64,000 nt of DNA from a virus. A program made the position numbers and the translations under genes. The notes under the pieces are model-generated. The model was given only the letters and a program-made list of their open reading frames with translations, was not told the DNA's origin and ran no database searches. This document shows, piece by piece, positions 22,737 to 61,884 of the stretch (positions are counted from its first letter, which is position 1; every line of letters starts with the position of its first letter). The stretch lies in IMG/VR virus record IMGVR_UViG_3300042453_004434, positions 1 to 64,000 of that record. One strand, written 5' to 3'.

Positions 22737-22784
22737 TACTTAATTCTCTTTTAATAACAACATAACATAACAATACAACACAAT

Positions 22785-23414: not shown

Positions 23415-23520
23415 CCAGCAATGTTCGTGCCAAACTCAAAAAACCAGGTGATTTTTTCTGACGAAAATCTGCACAGAAGTTGTTGACGCATCGGCGTCCA
23501 TCCTGTAGGCTGTAGCCACA

Positions 23521-23697: not shown

Positions 23698-23738
23698 ATA
23701 CTAGTTGACCATTGCTAATCTCTTGCTAATCTAATCCT

Positions 23739-24116: not shown

Positions 24117-24146
24117 CACCCACAAAAAATCTGATACCTTTTTCTT

Positions 24147-24356: not shown

Positions 24357-24358
24357 AT

Positions 24359-24625: not shown

Positions 24626-24645
24626 ACTTGGCATGGGACTTGCTT

Positions 24646-24702
24646 GGGGCCCCTCCTTGCGTAAGTCGTTGATACTGAGGGACTTACAGAAGGTGGGGCC
24701 CC
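24646..24702. repeat. 57-bp palindromic core R4
   Basis: GGGGCCCC-N41-GGGGCCCC. Confidence 0.9.
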
Positions 24703-24861
24703 GTAGCAACTATAGTGCCAACATGATCTTGGCATGATTTTTGCCCCAGCAATCTTCGTGCCAACAGTGATTTTCCAGGCGATTGGCATGAAACTTGTTT
24801 CTGAAAATATCTGTGCAGAAGTATTGACCAGGAACCAGCCTTCCGATAGGCTATAGCCACA

Positions 24862-25083
24862 ATGAAGGCCACAATGAATACAAACAACTATCCGTCAGTT
24901 ACGATCACTTTCTGCGAAACCCAAATCGAAGTTTGGTATCGCGTTTCTCTTTCTAACAATGTTTTCATCATGGAGATGAAACCAGTTGATAATGTTTCAA
25001 TAGAAGATTGGGATTGGATTTGTTCTCGGGCAAAGCATTATGAACAAATCGAAGAGTTGATTGCATTTGAAATTAACAATTAA
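24862..25083 (+). CDS. small early protein, paralog of 26052
   Basis: NNYPSVTITFCETQIEVWYRVSLS shared with 26052. Confidence 0.75.
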   Translation: MKATMNTNNYPSVTITFCETQIEVWYRVSLSNNVFIMEMKPVDNVSIEDWDWICSRAKHYEQIEELIAFEINN

Positions 25084-25097
25084 TAATAATAACACAT

Positions 25098-25250
25098 ATG
25101 GACAACAATATTGAAATTGGATTGGCGCAGATTGAAGTTGAGGAAGTGATTACTGAAGATTCAAATCCGACTTGGCCTGATGACAGCAACAACAACATGG
25201 ATCAATATCTAAGTTTGGAAGCGGCAACTGAAATCATGTTTCCTTTCTAA
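25098..25250 (+). CDS. 50-aa acidic peptide ending in FPF
   Basis: MDNNIEIGLAQIEVEEVITEDSNPTWPDDSNNNMDQYLSLEAATEIMFPF; CA-rich leader. Confidence 0.6.
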   Translation: MDNNIEIGLAQIEVEEVITEDSNPTWPDDSNNNMDQYLSLEAATEIMFPF

Positions 25251-25308
25251 TGTACATTTTACTAATCATCTGCATTGTCATTGTACTAATAAATAAAACA
25301 AACAACAT

Positions 25309-25533
25309 ATGAGTGAACATAAATACGCTTTTAACTATGTAATCGATCCGCGCAAATTGATTAGTTTGCACGTTGCGGTTGAACTTCTAATTGTCAGGCT
25401 GGAAGAGCAGATTAAGAAAGAAGAATTGAGTAATGAGTCTTACTTTTCTAAATATAAACAAGAATTGGAGCAATTACTAATTGATACTGACTATTCCAAT
25501 TTGAAATATGCTAATACGACAAATGTAAACTAA
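25309..25533 (+). CDS. small protein, paralog of 26338
   Basis: MSEHK...LHVA...SKYK.EL.QLL shared with 26338. Confidence 0.75.
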   Translation: MSEHKYAFNYVIDPRKLISLHVAVELLIVRLEEQIKKEELSNESYFSKYKQELEQLLIDTDYSNLKYANTTNVN

Positions 25534-25583
25534 TAACCTGAGCAGGAACCGTGCCAACTGAGGGTTGGCATGGAACTTGCTGT

Positions 25584-25640
25584 GGGGCCCCACCTTGCGT
25601 AAGTCCTTGATACTGAGGGACTTACAGAAGCGGGGGTCCC
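25584..25640. repeat. 57-bp palindromic core R5
   Basis: GGGGCCCC-N41-GGGGTCCC. Confidence 0.9.
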
Positions 25641-25817
25641 CAAAAAAATCAAGAGGTTTTTTTCGGTATTTTCCAGGTACTTGGCATGACTTCTGCTCCC
25701 CCAGCAATCTTCGTGCCAACAGCGATTGTCCAGGCGATTGGCATGAAACTTGTTTCCTGAAAAATCTGTCTGGAAGATGTTGACGGATCGGCGTCCATCA
25801 TGTAGGCTATAGCCACA

Positions 25818-26027
25818 ATGAAGGACGACATGAGTACAGAACACATCAGAGTTACAGACTACGAAATCGACGACGACGGCGCACTATACGTCACCGAGGC
25901 GTTCGACAGCAACGCCAACCGTCTTCTGAACTGGAACGAGATTCGTGATCTCAATGCCAATGTTGAGTTTATGGAAAACTTCAGCGAACAGCGCGTCGCA
26001 TTTTACGACGAAGAATACAACGCCTAA
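25818..26027 (+). CDS. small acidic early protein
   Basis: ATG 9 nt after TTGACG-N17-TAGGCT. Confidence 0.7.
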   Translation: MKDDMSTEHIRVTDYEIDDDGALYVTEAFDSNANRLLNWNEIRDLNANVEFMENFSEQRVAFYDEEYNA

Positions 26028-26051
26028 CAATTAACAATAACAACACACACA

Positions 26052-26270
26052 ATGAATAGAAATAACTATCCTTCAGTAATAATAACTTTCTGCGAAACTG
26101 AGCTTCAAGTTTGGTATCGCGTTTCTCTCTCCAAGGGCATTTGCATCATGGATATGGAAGCTCTTGACAAGAACATCTCCAAAGAAGATTGGAATTGGAT
26201 TTGTTCTGAAATCAAACATCATGAACAGATCGAACAAATAGTGGCTGATATTGTTAATAACGAATACTAA
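26052..26270 (+). CDS. small early protein, paralog of 24862
   Basis: clear sequence similarity to 24862. Confidence 0.75.
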   Translation: MNRNNYPSVIITFCETELQVWYRVSLSKGICIMDMEALDKNISKEDWNWICSEIKHHEQIEQIVADIVNNEY

Positions 26271-26337
26271 TACAATATAAAATTTTTAATTATCCTTTTG
26301 CTTCTTGCTTTTTTAATTCATACTAAATAAACAACAT

Positions 26338-26559
26338 ATGAGCGAACATAAACATTACTATAAATATATAATCAATCCTCCCGAGTTGGTTGCTTTGCAC
26401 GTTGCGGCTGAAATGTTAATTTCTAAACTTGATCAGCAAATAAAAGATCAAGAATTGGATAATAATTCTTTTGCTTCTAAATATAAATCAGAATTGCAAC
26501 AATTGCTAAACAAGACTCACTATTGCAATTTGGAACGCATCAATGCAAATGTAGATTAA
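26338..26559 (+). CDS. small protein, paralog of 25309
   Basis: clear sequence similarity to 25309. Confidence 0.75.
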   Translation: MSEHKHYYKYIINPPELVALHVAAEMLISKLDQQIKDQELDNNSFASKYKSELQQLLNKTHYCNLERINANVD

Positions 26560-26609
26560 TAAACTGAGCAAGACCCGTGCCAACCTGGACTTGGCACGAA
26601 ACTTGCTGT

Positions 26610-26666
26610 GGGGCCCCTCCTTGTGTAAGTCGTTGATAATCAAGGACTTACAAAAAGGGGGGCCCC
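26610..26666. repeat. 57-bp palindromic core R6
   Basis: centre GTAAGTCGTTGATAATCAAGGACTTAC holds two perfect WATCAANNNNTTR sites. Confidence 0.9.
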
Positions 26667-26807
26667 AAAAAAATCAAGAAATTTTTTTCGGTATTTTCCA
26701 GGCGCTTGGCACGGCTTCTGCTCCCCAGCAAGAGTCATGCCAACATCACAAAAAAGAAAAATGCAAAAAAAGCTTGTTGCCTCCCTTGTCAAGCCTAAGA
26801 TACTCGC

Positions 26808-26993
26808 ATGATTCATAACTGGATTCCCCGCAGCCTTCGATGGTCTGCTGACGAACGAAAACAGAAAGAAACGCAAGCTCGAAACGCTCGCGAAAACGCA
26901 AGGAAAATCTGGCTGGAAAAGGAAAAAACCAGGCAGCAAATTGAGCGCGAAATCTTGCAAAAAGTCCTTGCACGTCGGGCGCTCCTCGACTAG
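26808..26993 (+). CDS. small basic helical protein
   Basis: 61-aa ORF with a promoter-like upstream sequence. Confidence 0.55.
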   Translation: MIHNWIPRSLRWSADERKQKETQARNARENARKIWLEKEKTRQQIEREILQKVLARRALLD

Positions 26994-27005
26994 TCTCTTC
27001 TCAAC

Positions 27006-27635
27006 ATGAAACTTGCACAAGCGATTGAATACGTGGGCGGATTTTCCGCTCCCTCAAAAATGCCCTGTCATGGGTTCAGCATCCCGGCGCGGTATTGCAA
27101 AACGGGGCAGAAGCTCCGTGAAGTTGCTGGTAGCATCTGCTCTAAGTGCTACGCTCTGAAGGGACGATACGGTTTCCCGAACGTGCAGAACGCGCTCGAA
27201 AGGCGCTTCGCCAACCTGAAAAACGATCTGTGGGTTCAGGCCATGACGATTGCGATCCGGGGAACCGAGTCAAGCGGTTTCTTCAGGTGGCATGATTCCG
27301 GCGACATCCAAGATGTCGCGCATCTTGACAAAATCGTGCAGGTTGCTCGCAACCTGCCGGAAATCAAGTTCTGGCTGCCGACTCGGGAGTACGGTGTCGT
27401 TTCGGAATGGGTCAAGGCAAATGGTGCGTTGCCTGAAAATCTGACGATCAGGCTTTCGGCTCTGATGTTGGAAGGTCAACCTCCGGTTGGAATCGCCAAC
27501 CGATTGGGTTTGACAACCTCGGGAGTTTCAAAGACGGGTTTCACTTGTCCGTCTTCGGCTCAGGGGAACAAGTGCCTGACTTGTCGGGCCTGTTGGGACA
27601 AGTCCGTCCAAAACGTCAACTACAAAACTCACTGA
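27006..27635 (+). CDS. GP88-like protein (Cys-rich, radical-SAM-like phage family)
   Basis: SKMPC...C...CSKCYA, FRWHDSGD, FWLPTRE, C-terminal CP...CLTCRACWD. Confidence 0.8.
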   Translation: MKLAQAIEYVGGFSAPSKMPCHGFSIPARYCKTGQKLREVAGSICSKCYALKGRYGFPNVQNALERRFANLKNDLWVQAMTIAIRGTESSGFFRWHDSGDIQDVAHLDKIVQVARNLPEIKFWLPTREYGVVSEWVKANGALPENLTIRLSALMLEGQPPVGIANRLGLTTSGVSKTGFTCPSSAQGNKCLTCRACWDKSVQNVNYKTH

Positions 27636-27695
27636 AAAAATGTTGTTTCTGGTCTTGACGGTGGCGTTGCTTCTGGTAATCTGTTCTCAACAAAA

Positions 27696-27881
27696 ATGAA
27701 ATACGAATTGATTGTTGAAACCGAAGCCTGCACGTCTTTCTTTACTTTCCCGCACAATCGCGAAGGTTCAACGGCAGCTTTTGAAAAACTTGGATCCTTC
27801 ATCACAAAGGATGAGTTTAGATCCGCAAAAATCGTGAGCAATCGCGACAATGTGATTTTCGAGTTTCCTTCTAAAAACTAA
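27696..27881 (+). CDS. hypothetical protein
   Basis: own TTGACG-N17-TAATCT promoter. Confidence 0.6.
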   Translation: MKYELIVETEACTSFFTFPHNREGSTAAFEKLGSFITKDEFRSAKIVSNRDNVIFEFPSKN

Positions 27882-27895
27882 ACAAACAACATATC

Positions 27896-28141
27896 ATGCA
27901 CACAATTAAAAAGTACATTGCACCGTTTGAAGTTATCAATTATACTCGCGAAGACGGCAATCAAGCTGTATATAAAGTTTTCCGTCTTTCAAAGCATCTT
28001 TTTCGTAATAAAAAGAAAGACGAAAATAGAATTGTCGGTTTCAAAGCCTGGAAATTGGCAAATACCGGCGCAAATCAAAAAGCAGGTTGGCGCAGTTTTC
28101 GATTTGATCGAATTAATGAAATTGAGCTTGCTTTCTTTTAA
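27896..28141 (+). CDS. WYL-like/SH3-fold small protein
   Basis: INYTREDG...GWRSFRFDRI. Confidence 0.65.
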   Translation: MHTIKKYIAPFEVINYTREDGNQAVYKVFRLSKHLFRNKKKDENRIVGFKAWKLANTGANQKAGWRSFRFDRINEIELAFF

Positions 28142-28329
28142 TATAATTTTGTTGGAAAAAAGACGATAAAGCAATGGCATGGTGTGCAAGGAGATCTTGC
28201 AACGGGATTGTGTTATGGCCTATTGAAACACCATTGCTTTTTTAATTAAAAAAAATTAAAATAAATTAATAAATAAAAATAGCGCGAGCAATTTTCATGC
28301 CAACCGGCACTTGGCACGGCAATTGCTGT

Positions 28330-28386
28330 GGGGCCCCACCTTTTGTAAGTCGTTGATATTCAAGGACTTACGCAAGGAGGGGCCCC
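28330..28386. repeat. 57-bp palindromic core R7
   Basis: GGGGCCCC-N41-GGGGCCCC, followed by an extra IHF-like palindrome. Confidence 0.9.
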
Positions 28387-28569
28387 ATGCGTAAACCCTT
28401 GATAATCAAGGGGTTACAAAAGCTAAAACTCCAGGTTAACGGTAACTATCGAACTATTTATCTATTTATATATCACTATTTAGCTATTTGTATTTAACTA
28501 TTTAGCGATCACTATTTAAGTATTTAAATAAAAAACCCTCAATTTTTTAGATTGAGGGCGATTGTTTAT

Positions 28570-28767
28570 TTATTTAACTGGATTTTTTGTATAACTTACA
28601 TCAATTACTTCTTCAATTATAGTAAAGCTATCTTTTTCAGCATCAAAATCATCATTATGAACTAACCAATTATGAATATCAATAGGATCTAATTTAACAT
28701 CAGATTTGAAATGATACCCAATAGTTGGGCCGTTGCGATATTCAACAATAGCAATTTGTTTGTTCAT
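28570..28767 (-). CDS. hypothetical protein
   Basis: likely start MNKQI at 28767; terminator-like hairpin downstream. Confidence 0.55.
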   Translation of the reverse strand: MNKQIAIVEYRNGPTIGYHFKSDVKLDPIDIHNWLVHNDDFDAEKDSFTIIEEVIDVSYTKNPVK

Positions 28768-28768
28768 A

Positions 28769-29023
28769 TTAGTAGAAGAAGATGCGCGACTCGTCAGGAA
28801 AGGTAACAGGAAGAGTGTCGCGGTCAACACCAAATGTGGTTCCAGGCGTCACATCAGACTTGGACAAATATCCAAATCCTTTGTAATTACCCGTCTGCAT
28901 GAGAAGATCTCCCACGAAATACTGTAGAGCTATTCGCTGATCCGCAAAGTCATTCTTGCTGTTCTGGAAGAATCGGTTTGCTTGTTCTCTGATGTTCTCA
29001 ACTGGAATGGTTTTTCGTTTCAT
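28769..29023 (-). CDS. hypothetical phage protein
   Basis: 84 aa, LMQTGNYKGFGYL. Confidence 0.65.
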   Translation of the reverse strand: MKRKTIPVENIREQANRFFQNSKNDFADQRIALQYFVGDLLMQTGNYKGFGYLSKSDVTPGTTFGVDRDTLPVTFPDESRIFFY

Positions 29024-29177
29024 ACAAATAATTTTTTACCTTGTACCGTCAACGCTGAGACTGAATCTACTGGAACACCGCGCCTTGTAAAGGATTTTTT
29101 ATTGGAATCGTACTCTAAAACGCCCCCATAAAATCCTACAGGAGACTTGACAGTCCAACCGACAACGTATCCGTTGT

Positions 29178-29540
29178 TCAGCGTGACTTGCGTGAGGTGG
29201 AGCGAACCAACTTTTTTGTCTTTTTTCCACTTGCCACCTTCTTCAACTTCGACTTGGTGGTTGTCTTCTTCTTGGTAGCGGAAACGGATTTTTTGCATAG
29301 ATTTTTTGTTTGATTTTCTTCTTGCTTTTTCTTTTTGGCAAACTCGCCGTAGTGATATGCTCGACCGCGAAGTCCTAGCTTTTGCTGATCTTCTGTGATG
29401 AAGCCACGACGAATCTCCCACTTTTTAAAAGCGTCGTCAATCATTTTATATGTGCCATCTGGAAGGTCTAAAGAATAGATGCCATCCATGCTGACATCAT
29501 ATCTGTTTGTAATACGCGATTTAAATTGACTATCACTCAT
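29178..29540 (-). CDS. basic protein with a Lys-rich histone-H1-like tail
   Basis: likely start MSDSQ; C-terminus KKSVSATKKKTTTKSKLKKVASGKKTKK. Confidence 0.55.
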   Translation of the reverse strand: MSDSQFKSRITNRYDVSMDGIYSLDLPDGTYKMIDDAFKKWEIRRGFITEDQQKLGLRGRAYHYGEFAKKKKQEENQTKNLCKKSVSATKKKTTTKSKLKKVASGKKTKKLVRSTSRKSR

Positions 29541-29675
29541 TGTATGTAAATCCCTTGTAGAAAAAATAAATACCAATACAAATTAATAAACAAAGCAAAA
29601 ACATTATCTACTTATTCTTTTGTTGATAGATTGTGATTAATAATGCGCAAACAATAATAAACAATAAATACATAA

Positions 29676-29867
29676 TTAAACAGGAGGAAGAACTTGCTCA
29701 AACTCTATTGCGCGTCCACTCAGATCACGAATGAGTTCACGGGACACAGTATCAAGAGTCTTGCGCCCAGTCAACTGAATAAATATGGCTTCCTGCGCTT
29801 TGTCGATGAACTTCTCGCGGGGAACACCATAGATGTGCTGAACATAGTACTTAATTTTAGTCTGCAT
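29676..29867 (-). CDS. hypothetical protein
   Basis: 63-aa ORF with a CA-rich leader. Confidence 0.6.
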   Translation of the reverse strand: MQTKIKYYVQHIYGVPREKFIDKAQEAIFIQLTGRKTLDTVSRELIRDLSGRAIEFEQVLPPV

Positions 29868-29947
29868 TTTTATTCCTTTTGTATTGTTTTTTACTTGGTA
29901 TTGTTTTTGTTGGAGGCGGAAGAGGCTTTCTAATTTTCTTAAATATC

Positions 29948-30454
29948 TCAGATTGTGATGGCAACTTTTTCATTTAATTTATCCCAAATAATGTATTGCT
30001 TACAATACTTGCAATAGTAATTTCTTTTACCAGATTGAATTGCGTTATGCTTGTATGTAGTTAGATAAATCTTTTTATCGCACTTGCAAGAATAAACATG
30101 ATCTGTTTTTACTTCAAAGTCGTGGCAACGAGTTGCCGATTGGCCGATAACTTGCATAACTTTCTTCCATTCGGCACCATGTGAAGAAATGAACATACCA
30201 TAAACTTGTCGCGAAATTAAATGTGCAGCTTCGTGACCCGGAGTATCATCAATAAATGCTTGTCCATTCTGAATTAAAAGAACATTGTTCAATCGAATTA
30301 GATTATGATGGTAATAAGCAACACCAGCACGGCGACCGCCCAAATTAAACTCAACAGTAGGAAATGGAAACTTTGCATTATAAACTGATTCGCAAATTGA
30401 ATATACGTTTTGTATTCTAACTAAGCAAGCGTTTTGTAATTCAGTTACATTCAT
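29948..30454 (-). CDS. SprT-like zinc metalloprotease
   Basis: RRAGVAY, HEAAH, HGAEWK, YSCKC...CKYC; likely start MNVTE. Confidence 0.9.
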   Translation of the reverse strand: MNVTELQNACLVRIQNVYSICESVYNAKFPFPTVEFNLGGRRAGVAYYHHNLIRLNNVLLIQNGQAFIDDTPGHEAAHLISRQVYGMFISSHGAEWKKVMQVIGQSATRCHDFEVKTDHVYSCKCDKKIYLTTYKHNAIQSGKRNYYCKYCKQYIIWDKLNEKVAITI

Positions 30455-30611
30455 CGCAATCAAAGTATCACCTTGTACTGCAAGGCACAAGGGATTTTTG
30501 TCGCCTGAACAACTTTTTTTTGAGGCACTTGGCACGAAACTTGTTGTTGACAACCTGGAGTTTCTTCAGAGAGAAACCAACGTAAGTCGTTGTCTTTCAA
30601 CGACTTGCGTT

Positions 30612-30668
30612 GGGGCCCCTCTTTGCGTAAGTCGTTGATATTCAAGGACTTACAAAAGGTGGGGCCCC
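30612..30668. repeat. 57-bp palindromic core R8
   Basis: GGGGCCCC-N41-GGGGCCCC, preceded by an extra palindrome. Confidence 0.9.
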
Positions 30669-30892
30669 AAAAAAATCAAGAGATTTTTTTTGGTATTCTC
30701 CAGGTAGTTGGCACGGTTTATGCTCCCAGCAATGGGAATGCCAAATCATAGTTGGCATGAAAATTGATTTCTTGACCAGGATTTTTTTTGGTGAAGCAAA
30801 AATATCTGAGAAAAGTTGTTGTAGCCGCATAGGAAATCGTACACACTGTACCCGCAGTTCGATTCAACAACTAACCAAAAGGAAAACACAGT

Positions 30893-31924
30893 ATGCCAGC
30901 AAACATTGAAAATCGTGACGTTCAGGCCGGACTTGAGATGGCTTGGCACGGTATGACCAAGATCGTTCCCGTCATCAACTTCGCTGACGCCTTTCCATTT
31001 GAAATTGAAAAGCGTCAACTGGTTGACAGCGAGGACGGCACCCCAATCGAAGGAGAGTATTACTTTCGCAGCACTGACGACAAGAAGAAGATCGGCAAGA
31101 CCCTTCCTGATTCTTATGTCGCAATCTCAAACGCTCGTTTTTGGGAAATCGTGCAGAACGCGGTTGGTGGCACTGGCGCCGTCATCGAATCCGCTGGAAC
31201 GGTTTTCGACCGTTGCCGCCGATTCGTGACTGTCAAACTCCAGACCGATCTTGATACGTTCAAGGTGGGTGATCGTGAGTTCAAGAATCGATTCTCCCTG
31301 CTGGACAGCATCGACCAGAGCACGAATCTGTACGGCGTGAACAGCAGCACCTGCGTCGTCTGCTCGAATACCTTCGCGATGGCGATGGGCGACAGGTCCG
31401 GCGAGTTCCGTTTCAAGCTGCGGCACTCGAAGAATCTTGTGCCCAAGATCGAGAACATGGAGAAGGCCATCGATCAGTTCATCGGTGTCACCGCCCAGTT
31501 CCAGCAGGCGATGAAGATCGCGAATGAGATCCCGGTCAAGCTGGATCAGGCTCGTCCGCTCTTTGCTGGTTGGATCGCTGAAGAGACCAATGGGCTATCC
31601 ACTCGTTCATTCAACACTGTCGGGCGTTTGACCGAGTTGTTCACTCGGGGTGCTGGAAATCGCGGCGAGACCCTGCTCGACGCTTTCAGCGCGGTGACTG
31701 ACTTCTATTCGCACGAATCGAGCGGCGGTCAGGATCAACCGGGGTTCCGAATGAAGCAGACCATCTCCAGCGACTTTGGCGCAGCGTCCAAGCGAAAGCA
31801 GGACTTCTTCGGCCAGATCTTCGACGTGGATAAGGAAGTGACGTTCAATCGGGATCGGTTCACCAATCTGGTCAGCAACGGTCGCAACCTCATCAGCGCG
31901 ATGGAAGCGGTTACCGCGAACTGA
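30893..31924 (+). CDS. DUF932 (phage/plasmid TIGR03299-like) protein
   Basis: AWHG, Y..ISN, IESAG, VVCSNT, RHS, AVTDFYSH; GC-rich codons. Confidence 0.8.
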   Translation: MPANIENRDVQAGLEMAWHGMTKIVPVINFADAFPFEIEKRQLVDSEDGTPIEGEYYFRSTDDKKKIGKTLPDSYVAISNARFWEIVQNAVGGTGAVIESAGTVFDRCRRFVTVKLQTDLDTFKVGDREFKNRFSLLDSIDQSTNLYGVNSSTCVVCSNTFAMAMGDRSGEFRFKLRHSKNLVPKIENMEKAIDQFIGVTAQFQQAMKIANEIPVKLDQARPLFAGWIAEETNGLSTRSFNTVGRLTELFTRGAGNRGETLLDAFSAVTDFYSHESSGGQDQPGFRMKQTISSDFGAASKRKQDFFGQIFDVDKEVTFNRDRFTNLVSNGRNLISAMEAVTAN

Positions 31925-31938
31925 ACCAGTCAAGCAAG

Positions 31939-31967
31939 AATCCTCCCGCAAGGGAGGATTTTTTTTT
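31939..31967 (+). terminator. intrinsic terminator
   Basis: AATCCTCCC-GCAA-GGGAGGATT plus T-tract. Confidence 0.9.
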
Positions 31968-32054
31968 GCGGTTGGCACGTCTTTTACGCTTGACAACCTG
32001 GAGATGCTCCTGGGAAAACCCAACGTAAGTCGTTGTCTTCCAACGAGTTACGTT

Positions 32055-36652: not shown

Positions 36653-37417
36653 ATGTCTATCAAAAATATAAAATCTCAAGAAATGAAAAACAAATACAAA
36701 AGATTAATCGTAAGCGATTTACATCTAGGATCACAACATAGTAGAAGCGATCTATTTTTGCAATTGTTAAAAAATATTGAGGTCGATGAAATAATTCTTA
36801 ATGGAGATATTATTGATGTTGTAGCTTTAAATAATAAAAAATTTAAAAATTGGCCGAAAGAACATTCTGTAGTTATTCAAAAACTATTGAGATTTATTCG
36901 TCATGGCGGAAAAATTATTTGGATCAGAGGTAATCACGAACTTAATTTAATTGATAGTTTTTTAAATGAAGAAATATCGGGTATTTATTTTTGCGAAGAA
37001 TATGTAATCGATAATTCTATTCTCATTCATCATGGAGATAAATTAGACTTTTTAGTTAAAGGAAAGTTTCAAAAATTATCTGAAATAGGAGCAATAGGAT
37101 ATGAAACGTTATTGAATTTTAATTATTATTTTCGCAAAATATTTTTTAAATTAAATCCTACTTTTTCATTAAGCTCATTTGTTAAATCTAATTTAAAAAA
37201 AGTAATGCAGTACATTACTTCTTTTGAAACATTAGCTGCCGAAGATGCTAAGTTAAAAGGATTTCAAACTGTTATTTTAGGACATATTCATCAACATTGC
37301 GATAAAACAATAAATGAAATTAGATATTTAAATTCAGGATGCTGGATGGATGATTCTGATCCTCATTATATAGTTCAGCATTTAAATGATCAATTAGAAT
37401 TAAAAAAATATAACTAA
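36653..37417 (+). CDS. calcineurin-like metallophosphoesterase (LpxH-like)
   Basis: SDLHLG, NGDIID, RGNHE, HHGD, GHIH, NSGCW. Confidence 0.88.
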   Translation: MSIKNIKSQEMKNKYKRLIVSDLHLGSQHSRSDLFLQLLKNIEVDEIILNGDIIDVVALNNKKFKNWPKEHSVVIQKLLRFIRHGGKIIWIRGNHELNLIDSFLNEEISGIYFCEEYVIDNSILIHHGDKLDFLVKGKFQKLSEIGAIGYETLLNFNYYFRKIFFKLNPTFSLSSFVKSNLKKVMQYITSFETLAAEDAKLKGFQTVILGHIHQHCDKTINEIRYLNSGCWMDDSDPHYIVQHLNDQLELKKYN

Positions 37418-45825: not shown

Positions 45826-46251
45826 TTATTTACTTTTAAATTGACAATCATCAATAATATCATCACAAATTAAACACTCACCATTAGCATCTAACTTGCA
45901 GGGTACATTAAAAATATTACCAATAATTTTAATGTCTTTTTTAGGGATATGTCCAAGTATTACGCTATGATATTTATATTCATTATCAATAATATATACG
46001 CCATTATGCATATCGACACAACCAACAAAGCTGATATATTTTACAATATCACCTTCGTAAATGTCTTTTCCATTCTTATCTTTTAATCCTGTATATTGTT
46101 GGATTACATAATCATCGCCACCGCTACCATTTTGTAGATTATGGAAGCGTCCATTTAAATCAATGATAAAGTGTTGTTGATTGTCATTATGAGGATAAAT
46201 GAATTGTAATCTCATTTTATCCCAAACTCTAAATTTAAATCGGTTATTCAT
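45826..46251 (-). CDS. YopX family protein
   Basis: KFRVWD, QQYTGLKDKNGKDIYEGDIV, IIGNIF. Confidence 0.9.
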   Translation of the reverse strand: MNNRFKFRVWDKMRLQFIYPHNDNQQHFIIDLNGRFHNLQNGSGGDDYVIQQYTGLKDKNGKDIYEGDIVKYISFVGCVDMHNGVYIIDNEYKYHSVILGHIPKKDIKIIGNIFNVPCKLDANGECLICDDIIDDCQFKSK

Positions 46252-46653: not shown

Positions 46654-47013
46654 TTACTTTAATAGTTCACTATGTTCAAAAATATTACCAACAATGACGG
46701 ACTCAAATGCTAAATCACAATTTAGATTGTCATAATCTTGGTTTCGTCCTTTCCGTTTCCATTGAAAGATATAACCACCGTGGTCAGCTTCATATAAGAC
46801 TTGTCCAATTACATCACCACCGACATCATAATGAATTTTTAAGATATCACCCTCGTAAATAGGGTTATCATTGCTATCAGTTAAGCCAGTGTATTGTTGA
46901 GCTATCCAATCGCATGAAGATGGATGTCCAAATTGTTCTCCCACTTGATAAATTTGAGTATCAAATCGTTTAATGGTGAAATCCCACACTCTAAATTTAA
47001 TTGGTCTGTTCAT
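46654..47013 (-). CDS. YopX family protein
   Basis: KFRVWD, QQYTGLTD...IYEGDIL, VGNIFEHSELL. Confidence 0.9.
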   Translation of the reverse strand: MNRPIKFRVWDFTIKRFDTQIYQVGEQFGHPSSCDWIAQQYTGLTDSNDNPIYEGDILKIHYDVGGDVIGQVLYEADHGGYIFQWKRKGRNQDYDNLNCDLAFESVIVGNIFEHSELLK

Positions 47014-47341: not shown

Positions 47342-47698
47342 TTACTTTAATAATTCTTTGTTCTCAAATATATTACCAACAACTTCCAGATGCTTAAATC
47401 TATTTAGATATGGCGTTTGATTAACTAATTGTTCTCCAGAATTAGATTGAAAAATAAACCCAAGTTTGTCATCACTCCATTTGGCAATAAAATCCATATT
47501 GTCATAACTAGAATTTTGATTATATTGAACAATGTCCCCCTCAAATATTAGATTACCATTCTTATCTTTTAAACCTGTATATTGTTGAATATGTTTACTG
47601 GCTAAAAATACTTCTAGCGGCAAAACATTTAATACTTTTTGGGCAAAGAATTTATTATTTACTTCATCCCAAACCCTGAATTTAAAGCGATCACTCAT
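47342..47698 (-). CDS. YopX family protein
   Basis: KFRVWD, QQYTGLKDKNG..IFEGDIV, VGNIFENKELL. Confidence 0.9.
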   Translation of the reverse strand: MSDRFKFRVWDEVNNKFFAQKVLNVLPLEVFLASKHIQQYTGLKDKNGNLIFEGDIVQYNQNSSYDNMDFIAKWSDDKLGFIFQSNSGEQLVNQTPYLNRFKHLEVVGNIFENKELLK

Positions 47699-48173: not shown

Positions 48174-48530
48174 TCATTTAATTAATTGAGGATGTTCTAA
48201 TATATTACCGAATTTTTCTAATTCAATCCACGGATAATCCATTGAAGCGGAAATTTCATTACAAATAAACTCATTCAATGCAAGATTGTCAACATAAAAA
48301 CATCCATAAGTAAAATTAACAATGCCCAATTTCATTCCATATTTTAATACATCGCCTTCATAAATCTTCTCACCATTTACATCGGTCAAACCACTAAATT
48401 GTTGTACAATGTGTGTTTTACGATTAAAATAAGTAGATAAACCGGCAACACCTTCACATCCGTAAAGTGCGCCGGTCATTACATATTTTTGAGCTTGTTT
48501 ATCCCAGATTCGGAATATATAATTACTCAT
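48174..48530 (-). CDS. YopX family protein
   Basis: FRIWD, QQFSGLTDVNGEKIYEGDVL, GNILEHPQLI. Confidence 0.88.
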   Translation of the reverse strand: MSNYIFRIWDKQAQKYVMTGALYGCEGVAGLSTYFNRKTHIVQQFSGLTDVNGEKIYEGDVLKYGMKLGIVNFTYGCFYVDNLALNEFICNEISASMDYPWIELEKFGNILEHPQLIK

Positions 48531-48747: not shown

Positions 48748-49113
48748 TTATTCATTAACAGGATTAGTATTATAATTACCAATTATTGTATAATCTTGCT
48801 GAGTAAATTGCATATAACCACCGCGAATCTCAGCAACATAATATCCAAAGTGATCATAAACAACTCGTCCTCGAACCATTTTCAAACCTAATTTATATTC
48901 AACGTAGTCATTAACATAAATATCTTCATTATTTATAGACTTATATCCAGTACAATATTCTACAATATAGTCATCTTCATTTGTATTTGTAAATGACTCA
49001 TAATAATCACTGTCGCCAATAATTAGTTTACCATTATTTGTAATGGCTTGTACATAACTATTATCTAAATACTTATTTTTTTTCTTATCCCAGACTCTGA
49101 ATTTACTTTTCAT
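48748..49113 (-). CDS. YopX family protein
   Basis: KFRVWD, TGYKSINNEDIYVNDYV, IIGN. Confidence 0.85.
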   Translation of the reverse strand: MKSKFRVWDKKKNKYLDNSYVQAITNNGKLIIGDSDYYESFTNTNEDDYIVEYCTGYKSINNEDIYVNDYVEYKLGLKMVRGRVVYDHFGYYVAEIRGGYMQFTQQDYTIIGNYNTNPVNE

Positions 49114-52236: not shown

Positions 52237-52702
52237 TTTTTAATTAAAAATATATTTTTTTAAAAAAGTGTTTTATATGAAACATTAATCTGTATAACGT
52301 TTCTTATGTGACATCTAAAATATAATCAGGAATTTGACCCGCAAACCAAAAAAAATCTTCTTGAAAAGAATAATGAAATGTAGCATTTAATGCAGGATTA
52401 AATGCAACAAGAACATCGCGATTCTTAATTCGTTTAAGTTTACCGCGAAATTCTATATGTGGATATTTTTTTCTTATCTCTTCTGGAACGTGAATGTTCA
52501 ATTTTATTGAATTTCTTCCAGTTGCTTGATTACATTATATATTGCATCTTCTAGTTCAATAACACGCTTGTCAAGCATTTTTAATCTATCCGCCGCTTCA
52601 GCTATTGCAGCATTTGCAACACCATCTTCTGATTGTATTTCTTTAGATAGTATTTGTAATGCTTTAATTAATGTAGCTGTAGATGATTTCATAAAAGAAA
52701 AA

Positions 52703-52777
52703 TGGCTCCTCCCCTTGGACTCGAACCAAGAACAACGAAATTAACAGTTTCGGACTCCACCATTGAGCTAGAGAGGA
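52703..52777 (-). tRNA. tRNA-Asn(GTT)
   Basis: cloverleaf, anticodon loop CT-GTT-AA, TTCGA T-loop, encoded CCA. Confidence 0.9.
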
Positions 52778-52785
52778 ATTAAAAT

Positions 52786-52868
52786 TGGCGCACCAAGCAG
52801 GGCTCGAACCTGCATTTTCAGCTCCATTTACGATTACAGAGGTAGAAGCTCTGCTCGGCTATTGGTGC
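52786..52868 (-). ncRNA. non-canonical tRNA-like RNA with an Arg(TCT)-like loop
   Basis: acceptor GCACCAA/TTGGTGC + G + CCA, canonical T-arm, hairpin CAGAG-CTTCTAC-CTCTG, no normal D-arm before it. Confidence 0.7.
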
Positions 52869-53133
52869 ATTAATCTTGCTAAAAGTGCCTTTCTCGTTTA
52901 TTTAAAAACTTACAGGACAGAGGCATGAGCCTCTTTTTCCTCCTAGCAAGAAATATTAGGTTCATACGGTGTATTGGTTATTTTCCGATCCGCAGTGTCC
53001 ATCCCCTAAACCAATAGGTGACACCTTTCATTAGCGGTTGAACCTAAAAATTATTATAAAAGAACTAAATGCCCATTTTTTGCTCAGTGTAAAGCGACTC
53101 AAATCAAGATCGCTTGGGCGCACTGTATGTTTT

Positions 53134-53221
53134 TTGCAGATCACGTCGCTGAGTTGTCTGGTGCCCAGAATTTCCAGCGCCCCAAACTACGGTCAATTAC
53201 CGACTCCCGTCATTGCTGCAA
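53134..53221 (-). ncRNA. unidentified structured RNA, short copy A
   Basis: closed by TTGCAG/CTGCAA; helices covary with copy B. Confidence 0.75.
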
Positions 53222-53224
53222 AAA

Positions 53225-53415
53225 TTGCAGATCAGGTTGTTCAGTGCTTAATGTGTTCCCAATCAGATATCGACATACTTTAGCTCGGATGATTCGAAAA
53301 GCATCATCTACTTTACGCTAATTAAATGTCCTGATTTCTACCAGATTCTTTCCGAGAGGCTTTTCACTGGCTACCTTAAGCTACGTCTTAGTGACGACTG
53401 CCCTCATTGCTGCAA
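53225..53415 (-). ncRNA. unidentified structured RNA, long copy B
   Basis: same five-helix core as copy A plus a large apical domain. Confidence 0.75.
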
Positions 53416-53539
53416 AATTTATTATGATTTAGGTAGCTACTCCCAAATCATAATTTTCCTCAAATACCGTCCGTAATAGAAATCCAAATCTATTATCATG
53501 TGTTCGCTTTTGGAAGCCGGATGTATTTTTTGGAAAAAT

Positions 53540-53625
53540 TGGTGCCGCTAGACAGGGTCGAACTGTCACGCCATTTCTGGCAGCAGATTTTAAGTCTGCT
53601 GTGTCTGCCATTCCACCATAGCGGC
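53540..53625 (-). tRNA. tRNA-Leu(TAA)
   Basis: cloverleaf with long variable arm, loop CT-TAA-AA, CCA. Confidence 0.92.
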
Positions 53626-53643
53626 ATTTAAAAGAACGTACAT

Positions 53644-53672
53644 ATCCTACTATTGGATACGCCCTTTGTCAA
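53644..53672 (-). promoter_or_regulatory. sigma70-type promoter for the Leu tRNA/ncRNA block
   Basis: TTGACA-N17-TAGGAT followed by boxA-like GTTCTTTT. Confidence 0.75.
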
Positions 53673-53681
53673 GGAAAAATT

Positions 53682-53756
53682 TGGTGCATCTGGCGCGACT
53701 CTCACGCGCAACCTAACCCTTATAAAGAGTTTGCTCTGAAATTGAGCTACAGATGC
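53682..53756 (-). tRNA. tRNA-Ile(TAT)
   Basis: AACTC-TT-TAT-AA-GGGTT anticodon arm, atypical T-loop TGAGAGT, CCA. Confidence 0.85.
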
Positions 53757-53857
53757 ATTTAAAGAACACGAACAATCTACTCTGAAAACTTGCTCTTGTC
53801 AACATCAAAAGATTTGAATTTCACATTTCGAATCTTATCATGTATATAATATATATT

Positions 53858-54532
53858 ATGTTATTAATTTCTATAGATCAAATTTCTAATTATAAATCAA
53901 TGGATCTTTTAGATGTTAAATGCGATTCTTGTCAAAAAATTTTTAAAAGAAGACAAGCTCAAATAAAAAGCGATCTTAAATTAAAGAATCAAACAAAACA
54001 TTATTGTTCGAATAAATGCCAAGGTATTAAACAAATTACAAAAATTAAAGTTGAATGCAAGCAATGCGGAAGTGAATTTTTCAAAGTAGCAGGAGAACAT
54101 CGAAGGCATCCAAATTCTTTTTGTAACAGATCATGCGCCGCAACATACAACAACACTCATAAAACTCATGGTTGTAGAAGATCTAAATTTGAAATTTATT
54201 TATCTGAAATTTTACCAAATCGTTATCCTGATTTAGAATTTCATTTTAATAGAATTGATACTATTAATTCTGAGTTAGATATTTATATTCCTGATTTGAA
54301 ATTAGCTTTTGAATTAAATGGTATTTTTCATTATGAACCTATTTATGGTAAAGAAAAACTTTTAAGAACACAAAATAATGATCAAAGAAAATTTCAAGCT
54401 TGTTTAGAACGGAATATAGAATTATGCATTATTGATGTATCTAGTATTTCTTATTTCAAACCAGACAGAGTTCAAAAATTTGTAGATATAATAACAAATA
54501 TTATTGATTCAAAATGTAAAAGAACAGAATAA
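53858..54532 (+). CDS. putative free-standing homing endonuclease (Zn-finger repeats + PD-(D/E)XK/Vsr-like domain)
   Basis: two CxxC...CxxxC repeats, then SKFE, ELDIYIPDLKLAFELNGIFHY; antisense to the tRNA cluster. Confidence 0.75.
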   Translation: MLLISIDQISNYKSMDLLDVKCDSCQKIFKRRQAQIKSDLKLKNQTKHYCSNKCQGIKQITKIKVECKQCGSEFFKVAGEHRRHPNSFCNRSCAATYNNTHKTHGCRRSKFEIYLSEILPNRYPDLEFHFNRIDTINSELDIYIPDLKLAFELNGIFHYEPIYGKEKLLRTQNNDQRKFQACLERNIELCIIDVSSISYFKPDRVQKFVDIITNIIDSKCKRTE

Positions 54533-54534
54533 AA

Positions 54535-54806
54535 TGGGGGGCCTTGAAGGATTTGAACCTTCACTCAACGAATTCGGATTTGTGAATATTTCTATTCTCT
54601 CTGGACTTTACCACTTCCATAGTATTTCTACTTTAGGAACGCGCCGTCAAGTCTCTACACCTTCTGTATTTCTACAGCTTGGCTCGGTATTGCCTACTAT
54701 TTGTAGTTTAGGTTTCACCGACTTTGACGCGATTCAATATAGAATTTCTTCTATAAGGCACTTTTATTAAATGAGTTCGCTGCTTTAACCATTAAGCTAA
54801 AGGCCC
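54535..54806 (-). tRNA. intron-containing tRNA with CAT anticodon (Ile2-type)
   Basis: exons 54806-54771 and 54574-54535 join into a cloverleaf GCGAA-CT-CAT|AA-TTCGT; acceptor GGGCCTT/AAGGCCC. Confidence 0.88.
54575..54770 (-). ncRNA. group I intron (Azoarcus tRNA-Ile-like, IC3), 196 nt, no ORF
   Basis: 5' exon ends in U and intron ends in G; GTGCCTT, GTCAAA.TCGG.GAAACCTAA, GGCAA..CCGAGCCAAG, GAAGGTGTAGAGACT.GACGG and AGTCCAG occur in the Azoarcus order. Confidence 0.92.
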
Positions 54807-54833
54807 GTAATTATAAAAAGAACAAAAATAAAT

Positions 54834-54907
54834 TGGTAGGACCGGAGGGTAACGCTCCCTCTTCTATGGTTTAAAAGACCATTGCATCACTTTAATGCTT
54901 CGATCCC
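54834..54907 (-). tRNA. tRNA-Lys(TTT)
   Basis: ATGGT-CT-TTT-AA-ACCAT; atypical T-loop AGCGTTA; CCA. Confidence 0.85.
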
Positions 54908-54966
54908 ATTTTAAAGAACTTCAATACTCTATCTTAGAATATTGCCTCTGTCAAGAGAGAAAAATT

Positions 54967-55043
54967 TGGGAGCAGGTGCTGGATTTGCACCAGCGATCTT
55001 CACGTTATGAGCGTGACGAGATAGACTACTTCTCCAACCTGCT
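54967..55043 (-). tRNA. tRNA-Met(CAT)
   Basis: TCACG-CT-CAT-AA-CGTGA; T-loop TGCAAAT; CCA. Confidence 0.85.
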
Positions 55044-55109
55044 ACTAACTCACTTTCAACGCACTAACTCTACATCAAACACACACACTTGTCAAGCGAT
55101 TTTTTGAAG

Positions 55110-55184
55110 TGGAGCCTCCTTCCGGGCTTGCGCCGAACTCTGAGGTTTACAAAACCCCTGCATCGCTGCCTATGCTTAGGAGGC
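55110..55184 (-). tRNA. tRNA-Thr(TGT)
   Basis: GGGGT-TT-TGT-AA-ACCTC; atypical T-loop CGCAAGC; CCA. Confidence 0.82.
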
Positions 55185-55190
55185 CACTAA

Positions 55191-55490
55191 CTAAAAATTC
55201 TCACCCTTACCAACAATATTAATACTATTTATATCTACTTTATAGTATTTTGCAACTCTTTTCTTAAAATTATTACACACTTTTTTAACATGATGCGGAA
55301 TTACCGCATTGGTTTTCGTGGCGAAACGACTAACTGCAATATTAAAACCACGTAGCTTATCAAAGCGATCACCAGCTTTTACATTGGTATACGACCAACT
55401 AATAATTGGATAATCATTTGTTGATTTATCAGCAATCAAAACACCACGCAGCTTATTCTTTTTTGGATCGTGAATATATTGAACAATCAT
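55191..55490 (-). CDS. hypothetical phage protein
   Basis: WS.....DRFDK..G..IA..R pattern. Confidence 0.6.
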   Translation of the reverse strand: MIVQYIHDPKKNKLRGVLIADKSTNDYPIISWSYTNVKAGDRFDKLRGFNIAVSRFATKTNAVIPHHVKKVCNNFKKRVAKYYKVDINSINIVGKGENF

Positions 55491-55527: not shown

Positions 55528-56160
55528 ATGAATATGGAAACTCGTCAATGTAAAAAGTGCAAATCTTTCAAAAATTTAACTGAAGAATTTTGGATGTTAA
55601 GAAAATCTAGATTTGGATATAAATGTAGAAAATGCGAAAACCAAGATTGTAAAAACTATCATTTTAAAAATCACGATAAAATATTAAAAAGATTAAAAGA
55701 TTATAAAAATAATCATCAAAAAGAAATTCAAGATTATCGAGATAAAAATAAATTAAAAATGAAAGAATATAGATTAAAAAATAAACAATATTTTCGAGAA
55801 TATTTTAAGAATAGACAAAGAAAAAAAAGATTAGATCCTATTTACAAATTACATAGTAATATATCTAGAGGTATCAATCATCACTTAAAAGGAGCTTGTA
55901 TAAAAAAGAATAAAAGTTGGTTAAAATATGTTGATTTTACTTTAGAACAATTAAAACTACATTTAGAATCTAAATTTTCAGATGGAATGAATTGGGAAAA
56001 TTATGGCAAATGGCATATAGACCATATAAAACCCAAATCATTGTTTAAAATAAATAGCCCAGAAAGTATTGAATTTAAAAAATGTTGGTCACTTGATAAT
56101 TTACAACCTCTCTGGGCTATTGATAATATATTAAAAAGTAACAATTATACCGAAAATTGA
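55528..56160 (+). CDS. HNH endonuclease
   Basis: GMNWENYGKWHIDHIKP...NLQPLWAIDNILKSN; N-terminal CxxC pairs. Confidence 0.88.
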   Translation: MNMETRQCKKCKSFKNLTEEFWMLRKSRFGYKCRKCENQDCKNYHFKNHDKILKRLKDYKNNHQKEIQDYRDKNKLKMKEYRLKNKQYFREYFKNRQRKKRLDPIYKLHSNISRGINHHLKGACIKKNKSWLKYVDFTLEQLKLHLESKFSDGMNWENYGKWHIDHIKPKSLFKINSPESIEFKKCWSLDNLQPLWAIDNILKSNNYTEN

Positions 56161-57074
56161 TGATTGGTTAAAAGATTACAACCTTTAGACGTGATCTGTC
56201 GTAAACCATCAATATGGATTAAGTTTTTCTTGATCAAATATAATTCAAAATCTTTTTGAATCGCGCTTCTCGACAAACCTGTTTTTGCAGCCAAAGCAGA
56301 CAATGAACAATGTCCATTTTGACGCAAAATATTTAGTATCTGCCACTCAATCCGGTTCAAACCGTGAGGTAGTATTCCGAGAATATATACCAACTTCTTA
56401 GCGTCGTCAAGCGTAAACTTCTTGACATTGTAATTTTTACAATACAATGCTACTTCCTTGGCCCGGAGAACGCATGACCGTGCATTACCCCTTGAAGTAT
56501 CAGCCAGCATTGCAAGCGCATCATTATCAATTTCAATCTGAGGAAGATTCAACTTAAAAATATGCTCTAATTCATTATTAGAATAATCAGCAAATTCTAT
56601 TGTAGTTAATCTATCTCTCAGTGGCAGAAAGATCTTATCTGATTCAGTAGTTGCAAACAATATATTTATTTTTGTAAAATCAAAAACAAAAAGATTGTCG
56701 CCGTGATTATAATGCTTAATATTTCCTGCTTCTGTATTTAGAATTGTAAGAAAAGCAAATACTAGATTTTCAGGAAGACAGTGACATTCATCAAAAAACA
56801 GCACAACTTCTTTATCTTGAACATGATTAATAAAAATCTGCTCAAAGAAATGTGCAGAAGATTTGATGCTTGAACTGTTAATCTCAAGTAATGGCTTTTT
56901 CTGTCCATTGCTATCCAGCAGCGATTTCGAGAAAGCACGAACAAAATTCGTCTTGCCCAAACCGCGAGCACCGATAAAGTTGAGAAACGGTACGGTGCGA
57001 GAAGTTGCGTAAGCTGACGCATAGAACGCCAGCTTACGCTTTACTTCCACTTGACCCACTAGTGAATCAAACAT
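56145..57074 (-). CDS. ruvB: RuvB-like Holliday junction branch-migration ATPase
   Basis: FDSLVGQ, GARGLGKT, FFDECH, ATTE, PLRDR, SRGNAR, C-terminal winged helix ending RQITSKG. Confidence 0.85.
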   Translation of the reverse strand: MFDSLVGQVEVKRKLAFYASAYATSRTVPFLNFIGARGLGKTNFVRAFSKSLLDSNGQKKPLLEINSSSIKSSAHFFEQIFINHVQDKEVVLFFDECHCLPENLVFAFLTILNTEAGNIKHYNHGDNLFVFDFTKINILFATTESDKIFLPLRDRLTTIEFADYSNNELEHIFKLNLPQIEIDNDALAMLADTSRGNARSCVLRAKEVALYCKNYNVKKFTLDDAKKLVYILGILPHGLNRIEWQILNILRQNGHCSLSALAAKTGLSRSAIQKDFELYLIKKNLIHIDGLRQITSKGCNLLTNHQFSV

Positions 57075-61506: not shown

Positions 61507-61884
61507 TTATGCATATTGTTTATAACTTTCTAATAAGCTAATAATATTTTTTGCACCAATTGGATTTAAAGAATGCACAGTATAATCTGGTACTTTTAAA
61601 TTATTTTTTATGCAATATTCAATCAACCATTTCGCACAATCATAGCCAGTTTTTTCTGTATATTTGGAATAGTCTGTTTCACTATTGCAAAGATTTTTAT
61701 AATGCTCAAAACTTAAATCGTGATCAAATGAAATAAAATTTGGTAAATAACCTTTCAACTCTATAAGTACTTTAAAATTATTATAATCACGAACTACAGT
61801 CCAATGCAAATCAGGTATGGAAGTCCATTTCACGTCTTTTGGAAAACGCTCGTCATCTAAAAAAATATAATAAGGTTTACTCAT
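61507..61884 (-). CDS. cyclic-phosphate processing receiver domain protein
   Basis: FLDDER, ISFDHDL, TGYDCAKWL, HSLNPIG. Confidence 0.8.
   Translation of the reverse strand: MSKPYYIFLDDERFPKDVKWTSIPDLHWTVVRDYNNFKVLIELKGYLPNFISFDHDLSFEHYKNLCNSETDYSKYTEKTGYDCAKWLIEYCIKNNLKVPDYTVHSLNPIGAKNIISLLESYKQYA

Follow-up and report, generated by a model that had tools for sequence, protein, structure and literature searches.

Two copies of a structured RNA in a phage tRNA cluster

The window analysed here is a stretch of 64,000 nucleotides (nt) from an uncultured phage (positions 1 to 64,000 of IMG/VR virus record IMGVR_UViG_3300042453_004434). Its minus strand carries a cluster of transfer RNA (tRNA) genes in which, at 53134-53415, lie two tandem copies of a small RNA, here called copy B and copy A, followed by a pseudoknot-like hairpin, element D. 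The two copies are members of a new RNA family, small and independently folding, which uncultured freshwater phages carry in cassette form within their tRNA arrays. The features at this locus are the following.

~52700-55050, minus strand: tRNA cluster (ARAGORN and Rfam).
53644..53672, minus strand: promoter-like site (TTGACA, 17 nt, TAGGAT) upstream of tRNA-Leu (consensus scan).
53540..53625, minus strand: tRNA-Leu(UAA) (ARAGORN and Rfam), in relatives the usual gene directly upstream of the RNA.
53415..53225, minus strand: copy B, the long form, 191 nt (sequence, minimum free energy fold and covariance-model match of 63.7 bits, E-value 7.5e-14).
53221..53134, minus strand: copy A, the minimal form, 88 nt (sequence, minimum free energy fold and covariance-model match of 98.7 bits).
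53071..53126, minus strand: element D, a conserved pseudoknot-like hairpin 8 nt downstream of copy A (7-14 nt across the family).

Copy A begins and ends in helix P1 (nt 1-6 with 83-88, TTGCAG/CTGCAA), which is followed by a CA bulge (nt 7-8), helix P2 (nt 9-14 with 77-82, including a G.G mismatch at 11/80), a 1x5 internal loop in which G15 faces AGCGA, and helix P3 (nt 16-19 with 68-71). The P4 hairpin (nt 20-32) and the TA linker after it form part of a three-way junction, and P5 with its apical stem spans nt 35-66. Copy B, separated by three bases from copy A downstream of it, shares the P1-P5 base and has at the tip of P5 a branched insertion, its payload, of about 125 nt. Every helix that a preliminary description had listed for the two tandem copies is present base by base on the minus strand, and the minimum free energy fold of either copy alone consists of the same helices P1-P5. 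A covariance-model search of the window found exactly these two copies. A K-turn was considered for the 1x5 loop and rejected by inspection, as the register shift it would need is contradicted by G-C/C-G covariation at pair 13.

The RNA had been called unrecognised, and the Rfam 15 scan indeed yields no matching family. At gathering thresholds the whole window returns tRNAs only, and the scan of 52600-55200 at E<=10 has no match that overlaps 53134-53415 on the minus strand.

Comparative evidence for the fold

The fold is real, strand-specific and under selection. The covariance model, R1, aligned at least 69 matches, 63 of them distinct, from uncultured phage and metagenome contigs, and all counts 'of 63' given here refer to the distinct sequences among the matches listed. 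RNAalifold, applied to an independent and model-free MAFFT alignment of 12 short relatives, returned the same P1-P6, with eight of 33 pairs changed on both sides. In the 63-sequence alignment, which was fitted to the model in a way that favours structure and consists of related sequences, so that its figures are strong support rather than a probability, standard pairs fill 97.3% of 2003 pair cells and both-side changes occur in 14 of the 33 pairs (122 cells). None of 500 shuffles reached the observed pairing and covariation, and controls slid by one to three columns gave one to five both-side-changed pairs and 29-36% pairing. Each helix has at least one pair changed on both sides; in P1 this is a change from C-G to U-A in three of the 63 sequences, first noticed in the genome-scan match L202. 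The four long forms keep 48 predicted pairs, six of which are changed on both sides, the distal hairpins of the payload included. The two alignments agree, and the helix-by-helix covariation from which a selected structure had been proposed is borne out.

G-U or U-G pairs account for 239 of the 2003 paired cells (12%), and because these could not pair on the opposite strand, it is the tRNA-sense strand alone that has the fold.

The proposed division into a conserved base and a variable apical part likewise holds across relatives. A near-invariant basal rod comprises P1, the CA bulge, P2 with its G.G mismatch, the 1x5 loop and P3; none of the 63 sequences differs in columns 6-12, 14, 17 and 18 or in the 3' columns that pair with them, the unpaired C7, A8 and G11 being among these constant positions. 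The 1x5 loop has R on its 5' side and, by reading of the variants, A-R-N-R-A on its 3' side. P4, P5 and the tip are variable, with insertions accepted at the P5 tip, where at least four payload types occur (the variants being L298, L297, L248 and the long forms). Lengths range from 65 to 195 nt overall and are mostly 88-97 nt, with other forms of 123 and 188-195 nt that carry different P5-tip insertions.

A narrowly distributed family

The distribution of the family looks narrow, with members in uncultured phages and the window's own stretch present in lake-water metagenome runs. Each pattern used for retrieval contained a fixed piece of D or of one strand, 5' or 3', of the base. An exact pattern for the 5' strand gave 48 stretches in IMG/VR, 18 of them with the element, and many of the element-bearing contigs also encode a clamp loader about 63% identical to that of the window; a looser pattern and then R1 brought in further, more divergent members. 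A scan of species-representative genomes returned 35 stretches, three of them real, on contigs of 712 nt, 2.9 kilobases (kb) and 11 kb filed under a Paceibacterota metagenome-assembled genome (MAG), a Flavobacterium MAG and a Gammaproteobacteria assembly. We regard these three contigs as pieces of phage genomes and infer no host from them. With the 3' end of the element and the downstream hairpin as anchors, a metagenome scan gave at least 119 stretches. Two genes of the window served for comparison with other phages.

56145-57074: clamp-loader-like ATPase.
7186-9051: large terminase.

Run over 80 clamp-loader loci (1.3 Mb), R1 matched in the near relative L049, whose clamp loader is 96% identical, and in loci with about 63-64% identical clamp loaders, which were counted as nine and of which L050, L051, L052, L053, L055, L057, L060, L062, L064, L065 and L066 are named. 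It found no match in L054, L056, L058, L059, L061, L063 and L067-L069, nor in loci with 47-58% identical clamp loaders, and when it was run unfiltered on four more distant loci the scattered weak matches (the best of 20.1 bits, in a stretch of 66% G+C) were read as chance. A P1-free gapped pattern yielded no new P1 variant in viral contigs, its sole new locus (L192) being a chance match in a coding region. By blastn the 351-nt region has no match in deposited phage genomes, and the nearest virus record, the 16-kb fragment G001, shows no match to the tRNA cluster of the window. The closest cultured relative found by tblastn with the terminase is less than 27% identical, and for this reason no host is inferred.

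A slot between two tRNAs, with element D next

The RNA occupies a tRNA-like slot between tRNA-Leu(UAA) and tRNA-Arg(UCU), with the pseudoknot-like D next to it; this fixed place and the tie to D go beyond what the preliminary description had claimed. We surveyed 83 distinct contexts, counting an upstream tRNA if it lay on the same strand within 400 nt. Among the 55 contexts with such an upstream tRNA, the nearest one is tRNA-Leu(UAA) in 48, and in 26 of the 55 the gap from the encoded CCA to the RNA is 3 nt, which we read as comparable to the tRNA-to-tRNA spacers of 5-6 nt in these arrays (from coordinates). Downstream, the nearest tRNA is tRNA-Arg(UCU) in 33 of the 37 contexts having one. No opposite-strand tRNA was flagged in the 83 contexts, 79 of which hold one copy of the RNA and four of which hold two.

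Co-transcription with the tRNAs, which had been suggested from the window alone, fits these data: the copies lie on the tRNA strand, and the consensus scan finds no promoter-like site from 53644 down to 52868, and none between the tRNA-Leu promoter and the copies. With no such site intervening, the copies are most simply read as part of the tRNA-Leu transcript, and the site at 53644..53672 is likely the start of the transcript that carries both of them, a consensus match alone being no functional proof. This site is one of four near-identical promoter-like cassettes (TTGACA, 17 nt, TAGnnT), each preceding a tRNA gene.

55095-55067, minus strand: promoter-like cassette (consensus scan).
54954-54926, minus strand: promoter-like cassette (consensus scan).
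53802-53774, minus strand: promoter-like cassette (consensus scan).
53672-53644, minus strand: promoter-like cassette (consensus scan), upstream of tRNA-Leu.

A conserved GTTCTTTAAAT-like leader follows each of the four cassettes; it may resemble the boxA antitermination element of ribosomal RNA operons.

Element D has an outer stem and an inner hairpin, together with an A-rich linker and a 3' tail whose sequence is complementary to that of the internal loop. If loop and tail paired across the linker, an H-type pseudoknot would result, which remains a prediction because the pairing is invariant on its 5' side and thus carries no covariation support. The RNA stands just upstream of D in 26 of 27 real D-bearing viral contigs. 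A descriptor of D fits 67 of 78 distinct downstream stretches, and most of the 11 that do not fit are either variants of D or cases in which a B copy has an A copy, and D after it, downstream. One inner-stem pair covaries (U-A in 48, C-G in 17, U-G in two), and G-C is read there in variants outside the descriptor. Rfam offers no match for D, and inspection of the sequences showed no conserved case of loop-loop pairing between the RNA and D. The HDV-like (hepatitis delta virus-like) ribozyme fold is similar in topology; its catalytic cytosine lies in the linker that leads to the final strand of the pseudoknot, and its P3 stem is short. As a candidate for D it was rejected, since 28 of 67 D linkers have no C at all and so no catalytic cytosine; the inner stem of D, moreover, is about 6 base pairs (bp) long with a loop of about 12 nt, as against the short P3 of the HDV-like fold.

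Several further structures were seen in and around this cluster. Upstream of copy B, at ~53420-53530 on the minus strand, lies another conserved structured element, of which a counterpart exists at 13700-13830 of L059; two of its hairpins show compensatory differences between the window and L059, and it is kept in L059, which does not have the main RNA. Another self-contained fold, closed by the stem GGTTCA/TGAACC, lies at ~52950-53047 (minus strand). Two stretches on the minus strand, 52789-52868 and 54837-54907, score 34.2 and 43.2 bits with the Rfam tRNA model and receive no ARAGORN call; they may be non-canonical tRNAs. Finally, an insertion of about 250 nt resembling a group I intron interrupts the tRNA at the tRNA-Leu position in L040 (590-900) and L059 (13400-13680), and the tRNA-Leu of the window has no such insertion.

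Presence in RNA libraries

Expression of the copies had been left to be confirmed, and window sequence is indeed present in the RNA libraries of freshwater metatranscriptome runs. Six such runs contain 14-17% of the sampled words of 52700-53900, a small share that argues against wholesale carry-over of DNA. Contigs of four of the six, from four studies, were compared with the window, and all four runs hold window sequence in the following contigs.

53083-53315: contig from X15, 233 nt, depth 30.8.
53072-53315: contig from X16, 244 nt, depth 45.2.
53117-53315: contig from X19, 199 nt, depth 3.22.
53205-53478: contig from X17, 274 nt, depth 3.58.

The X15, X16 and X19 contigs cover copy A whole and the X17 contig covers copy B, so that both copies and D are covered by the four jointly, and no contig departs from the window by more than one letter. 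The remainder of 52700-53900 is uncovered in the four runs, except for a 35-nt piece of tRNA-Leu with non-window flanks. Further contigs from RNA libraries contain a B-like copy and then a different subtype in tandem. Three contigs from three studies end at 53315 without a loose end; this shared stop is a weak hint only and could be a strain branch point in the assembly graph.

Comparison with known RNAs

The RNA is neither a tRNA nor a Y RNA, and it is not homologous to T4 RNA C or RNA D. A tRNA cloverleaf finds no support, since neither ARAGORN nor the Rfam tRNA model makes a call over 53134-53415. The closest analogy is with RNA C and RNA D (species 1 and species 2) of T4, which are 139 and 119 nt long and lie in the phage tRNA cluster (NC_000866), and whose role is described as still unexplained in the accounts cited (PMC3014915, PMC9697503). 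As here, they are adjacent small stable RNAs on the tRNA strand, beside tRNA-Arg. Their folds differ from that of the window RNA, however, and no likeness in sequence or structure was found; R1 finds nothing at E<=1 in T4 66000-76000. In addition, RNA C ends in a tRNA-like T arm, which the window RNA does not have, and a common base bearing different payloads, as in the present family, is not seen in the T4 RNAs.

The preliminary description had invoked a Y-RNA-like logic, which did not survive closer comparison, as the features that define Y RNAs (a Ro-binding motif and also a tRNA-like domain) are absent. The Y RNAs YrlA and YrlB of bacteria and phages do share with this RNA a long end-pairing stem with conserved irregularities and a variable module. 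As described in the source cited, Y RNAs are about 100 nt long, bind Ro60 (Rsr) and are in some cases phage-encoded, and YrlA carries the Ro-binding motif GNCGAAN0-1G on the 5' strand of its terminal stem (PMC4201824). A regular-expression search found this motif in none of the 63 family sequences, and neither the Rfam tRNA model nor ARAGORN places a tRNA-like domain on the element; a T-loop-like string occurs in six of the 63 sequences and was placed by eye in the P4 loop of one subtype. Ro60, whose gene (rsr) adjoins those of YrlA-type RNAs, has no match among the 40 open reading frames (ORFs) scanned with Pfam, a subset of the ORFs of a window that is itself part of a genome. For a role as guide, also raised at first, or as antisense RNA, no evidence was seen either, since there is no conservation in the loops available for pairing with a target.

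ROOL and GOLLD share with this RNA their habitat (phage, tRNA island) and a function that is unexplained. The sources cited describe them as structured RNAs of phages and prophages near tRNA islands, perhaps co-transcribed with the tRNAs, many GOLLD RNAs exceeding 800 nt and both families having multiple pseudoknots and forming multimeric cages (PMC5737381, bioRxiv 10.1101/2024.12.08.627333). In contrast to these larger RNAs, the present one has 88-195 nt and one three-way junction, and the Rfam ROOL and GOLLD models do not match it. A covariation-based search of IMG/VR (Fremin et al. 2023, PMC10690425) reported 8495 candidates, some of them tRNA-like; the main text of that paper describes nothing like this motif, and its list of 8495 candidates may include it.

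Possible functions

We tentatively read the element as a stable RNA that is processed from a tRNA precursor and whose near-invariant basal rod is a recognition platform for a protein, an explanation that we regard as possible, somewhat short of probable. Transcription would start at the tRNA-Leu promoter and yield a polycistronic precursor, from which host tRNA-processing nucleases would release the RNA at the short A/U-rich linkers, and it would then accumulate in stable form, either by itself or joined to D. The surface that the protein recognizes would be the P1/P2 stack, which is 12 bp long, is continuous on its 3' strand and has irregularities that are conserved. From such a surface would follow a role in trans during infection, as a small ribonucleoprotein, a scaffold or a decoy, and the distal arm would be a position that is merely tolerated or that bears cargo.

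Several observations weigh against this reading. First, no partner protein emerged: the preliminary description had inferred a conserved protein-binding base and suggested looking for a co-occurring protein gene, and neither domain scans nor a presence/absence comparison of flanking genes supplied one. Scans of 40 ORFs with Pfam and 20 ORFs with PHROGs found no RNA-binding family; the matches were to methyltransferases, YopX, PhoH, a sigma-like protein, glycosyltransferases, endonucleases and a cyclic-phosphate receiver domain, among which there is no evident RNA-binding partner. In a tblastn matrix of the ORFs of L051, across 10 loci with the RNA and two without it, no gene tracks the RNA. 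Second, the near-invariance of P1/P2 is in part a matter of ascertainment, given that each search pattern fixed part of the base or of D. Third, the fold energies are ordinary when compared with shuffles (z = -1.48 for copy A and -0.27 for copy B), so that thermodynamics alone does not go beyond chance and the support for the fold is comparative. Fourth, the RNA is dispensable, as the otherwise similar phage L059 has no copy and joins its upstream element directly to the downstream hairpin. Finally, the RNA-library contigs give no ends, strand or level, and DNA is possible in such libraries; they also cross the B/A and A/D joints, from which it follows that an unprocessed precursor exists or that the units are never separated.

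The strongest rival, a serious possibility albeit on the unlikely side, is that the RNA, together with D, acts only in cis, within the precursor, as a processing or stability module, directing or blocking ribonucleases for the maturation of tRNA-Leu and tRNA-Arg or shielding 3' ends, and has no later life. Its place 3 nt after the CCA of tRNA-Leu in 26 contexts and before tRNA-Arg in 33 of 37, its constant location on the tRNA strand, its tight linkage to D and the contigs that span the unit joints would all be expected of such a module. Double-strand-specific nuclease sites, too, usually have the shape of a long interrupted helix. However, the invariance of unpaired and mismatched positions exceeds what a spacer or nuclease site usually needs, a mere signal for processing hardly accounts for two differing tandem copies or for payloads of 30-125 nt that are conserved, and L059 and L067 have tRNA-Leu and tRNA-Arg without the RNA.

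It is unlikely, in our estimate, that the RNA is a minihelix-type surrogate of a tRNA, serving as decoy or sponge for a tRNA-directed host factor in an RNA-based counter-defence. Here the P1/P2 stack of 6 and 6 bp, with its continuous 12-nt 3' strand and 2-nt exit bulge, would mimic the stack of acceptor and T arm. Such mimicry would explain both the position 3 nt after a tRNA and excision by the tRNA-processing machinery. The target might be, for example, a defence nuclease or a sensor that attacks tRNAs, with the payloads tuning the target.

We consider it distinctly unlikely that the family is a new self-cleaving ribozyme or an orphan aptamer with the three-way junction and conserved internal loops as its core. 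Conservation concentrated in junction, bulge, mismatch and internal loop, with peripheral stems that vary and tolerate insertions, is the usual pattern of such RNAs, and the tandem copies would suit them as well. Of the two proteins of the window listed next, the first speaks for this reading as well.

61507-61884, minus strand: cyclic-phosphate-processing receiver domain protein (PF20274, E-value 1e-19).
36653-37417, plus strand: calcineurin-like phosphoesterase.

Self-cleavage makes cyclic-phosphate ends, and domains of the cyclic-phosphate receiver and phosphoesterase types occur, according to the source cited, in phage RNA-repair gene sets (PMC9503650); no RNA ligase was seen among the scanned ORFs. 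Against a catalytic or ligand-binding RNA, no Rfam ribozyme or riboswitch matches at E<=10 and the linkers of the junction have just 0, 2 and 1 nt. A riboswitch, in particular, would have no downstream gene to control. As to self-cleavage, the RNA-library contigs run uninterrupted through copy A and D, and the missing HDV-like cytosine (28 of 67 linkers without C) speaks against D as its site.

A self-assembling RNA-only particle, a small counterpart of ROOL and GOLLD, is very unlikely. The habitat described for those RNAs (PMC5737381, bioRxiv 10.1101/2024.12.08.627333) is shared, and a rigid rod with a junction and short palindromes in some P4 loops could serve assembly; yet the RNA is 5 to 9 times smaller than ROOL or GOLLD, the palindromic loops are not conserved across variants, and the Rfam models of both families fail to match. 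That the element is instead a repeat at the level of DNA, whether a small mobile element bounded by terminal inverted repeats or a cassette for recombination, is scarcely credible. Its ends are indeed inverted repeats (P1/P2), it is present in 0 to 2 copies, and phages differ in what lies upstream of the cassette. But 12% of its pairs are G-U and pair on one strand only, compensatory changes lie deep inside internal hairpins, it occurs in RNA libraries that contain little of the 1.2 kb around it, the empty site of L059 shows no target-site duplication, and in 83 contexts it never lies on the strand opposite the tRNAs.

Phage tRNA clusters carry extra stable RNAs of unexplained purpose, T4 RNA C and RNA D having been known as such for decades and ROOL and GOLLD more lately. 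Being small (about 90 nt), backed by covariation, modular and present in RNA libraries, and having a defined conserved surface in the CA bulge, the G.G mismatch and the 1x5 loop, the RNA of the window is a tractable handle on the non-tRNA RNAs of phage tRNA arrays. If it were a protein decoy or a tRNA surrogate, an RNA-based layer would be added to the conflict between phage and host; if it were a processing module only, it would show how phages punctuate polycistronic tRNA transcripts.

Other features of the window and of more distant phages

The G+C content is about 30% over most of the window. A 12-kb block at 20001-32000 stands out with 41-45% G+C, against 27-33% in the remainder; it contains few ORFs of at least 200 amino acids (209, 201 and 343) and many short overlapping ORFs with TTG starts, and could be of different origin, follow a different coding regime or represent an assembly join.

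Five paralogous YopX-domain proteins are encoded in a row between 45826 and 49113.

45826-46251, minus strand: YopX-domain ORF.
46654-47013, minus strand: YopX-domain ORF.
47342-47698, minus strand: YopX-domain ORF.
48174-48530, minus strand: YopX-domain ORF.
48748-49113, minus strand: YopX-domain ORF.

In more distant phages, whose clamp loaders are about 50% identical to that of the window (L082, L085, L110, L117 and L118), a transfer-messenger RNA lies 1-2 kb upstream of the clamp-loader gene, at ~8100-9100.

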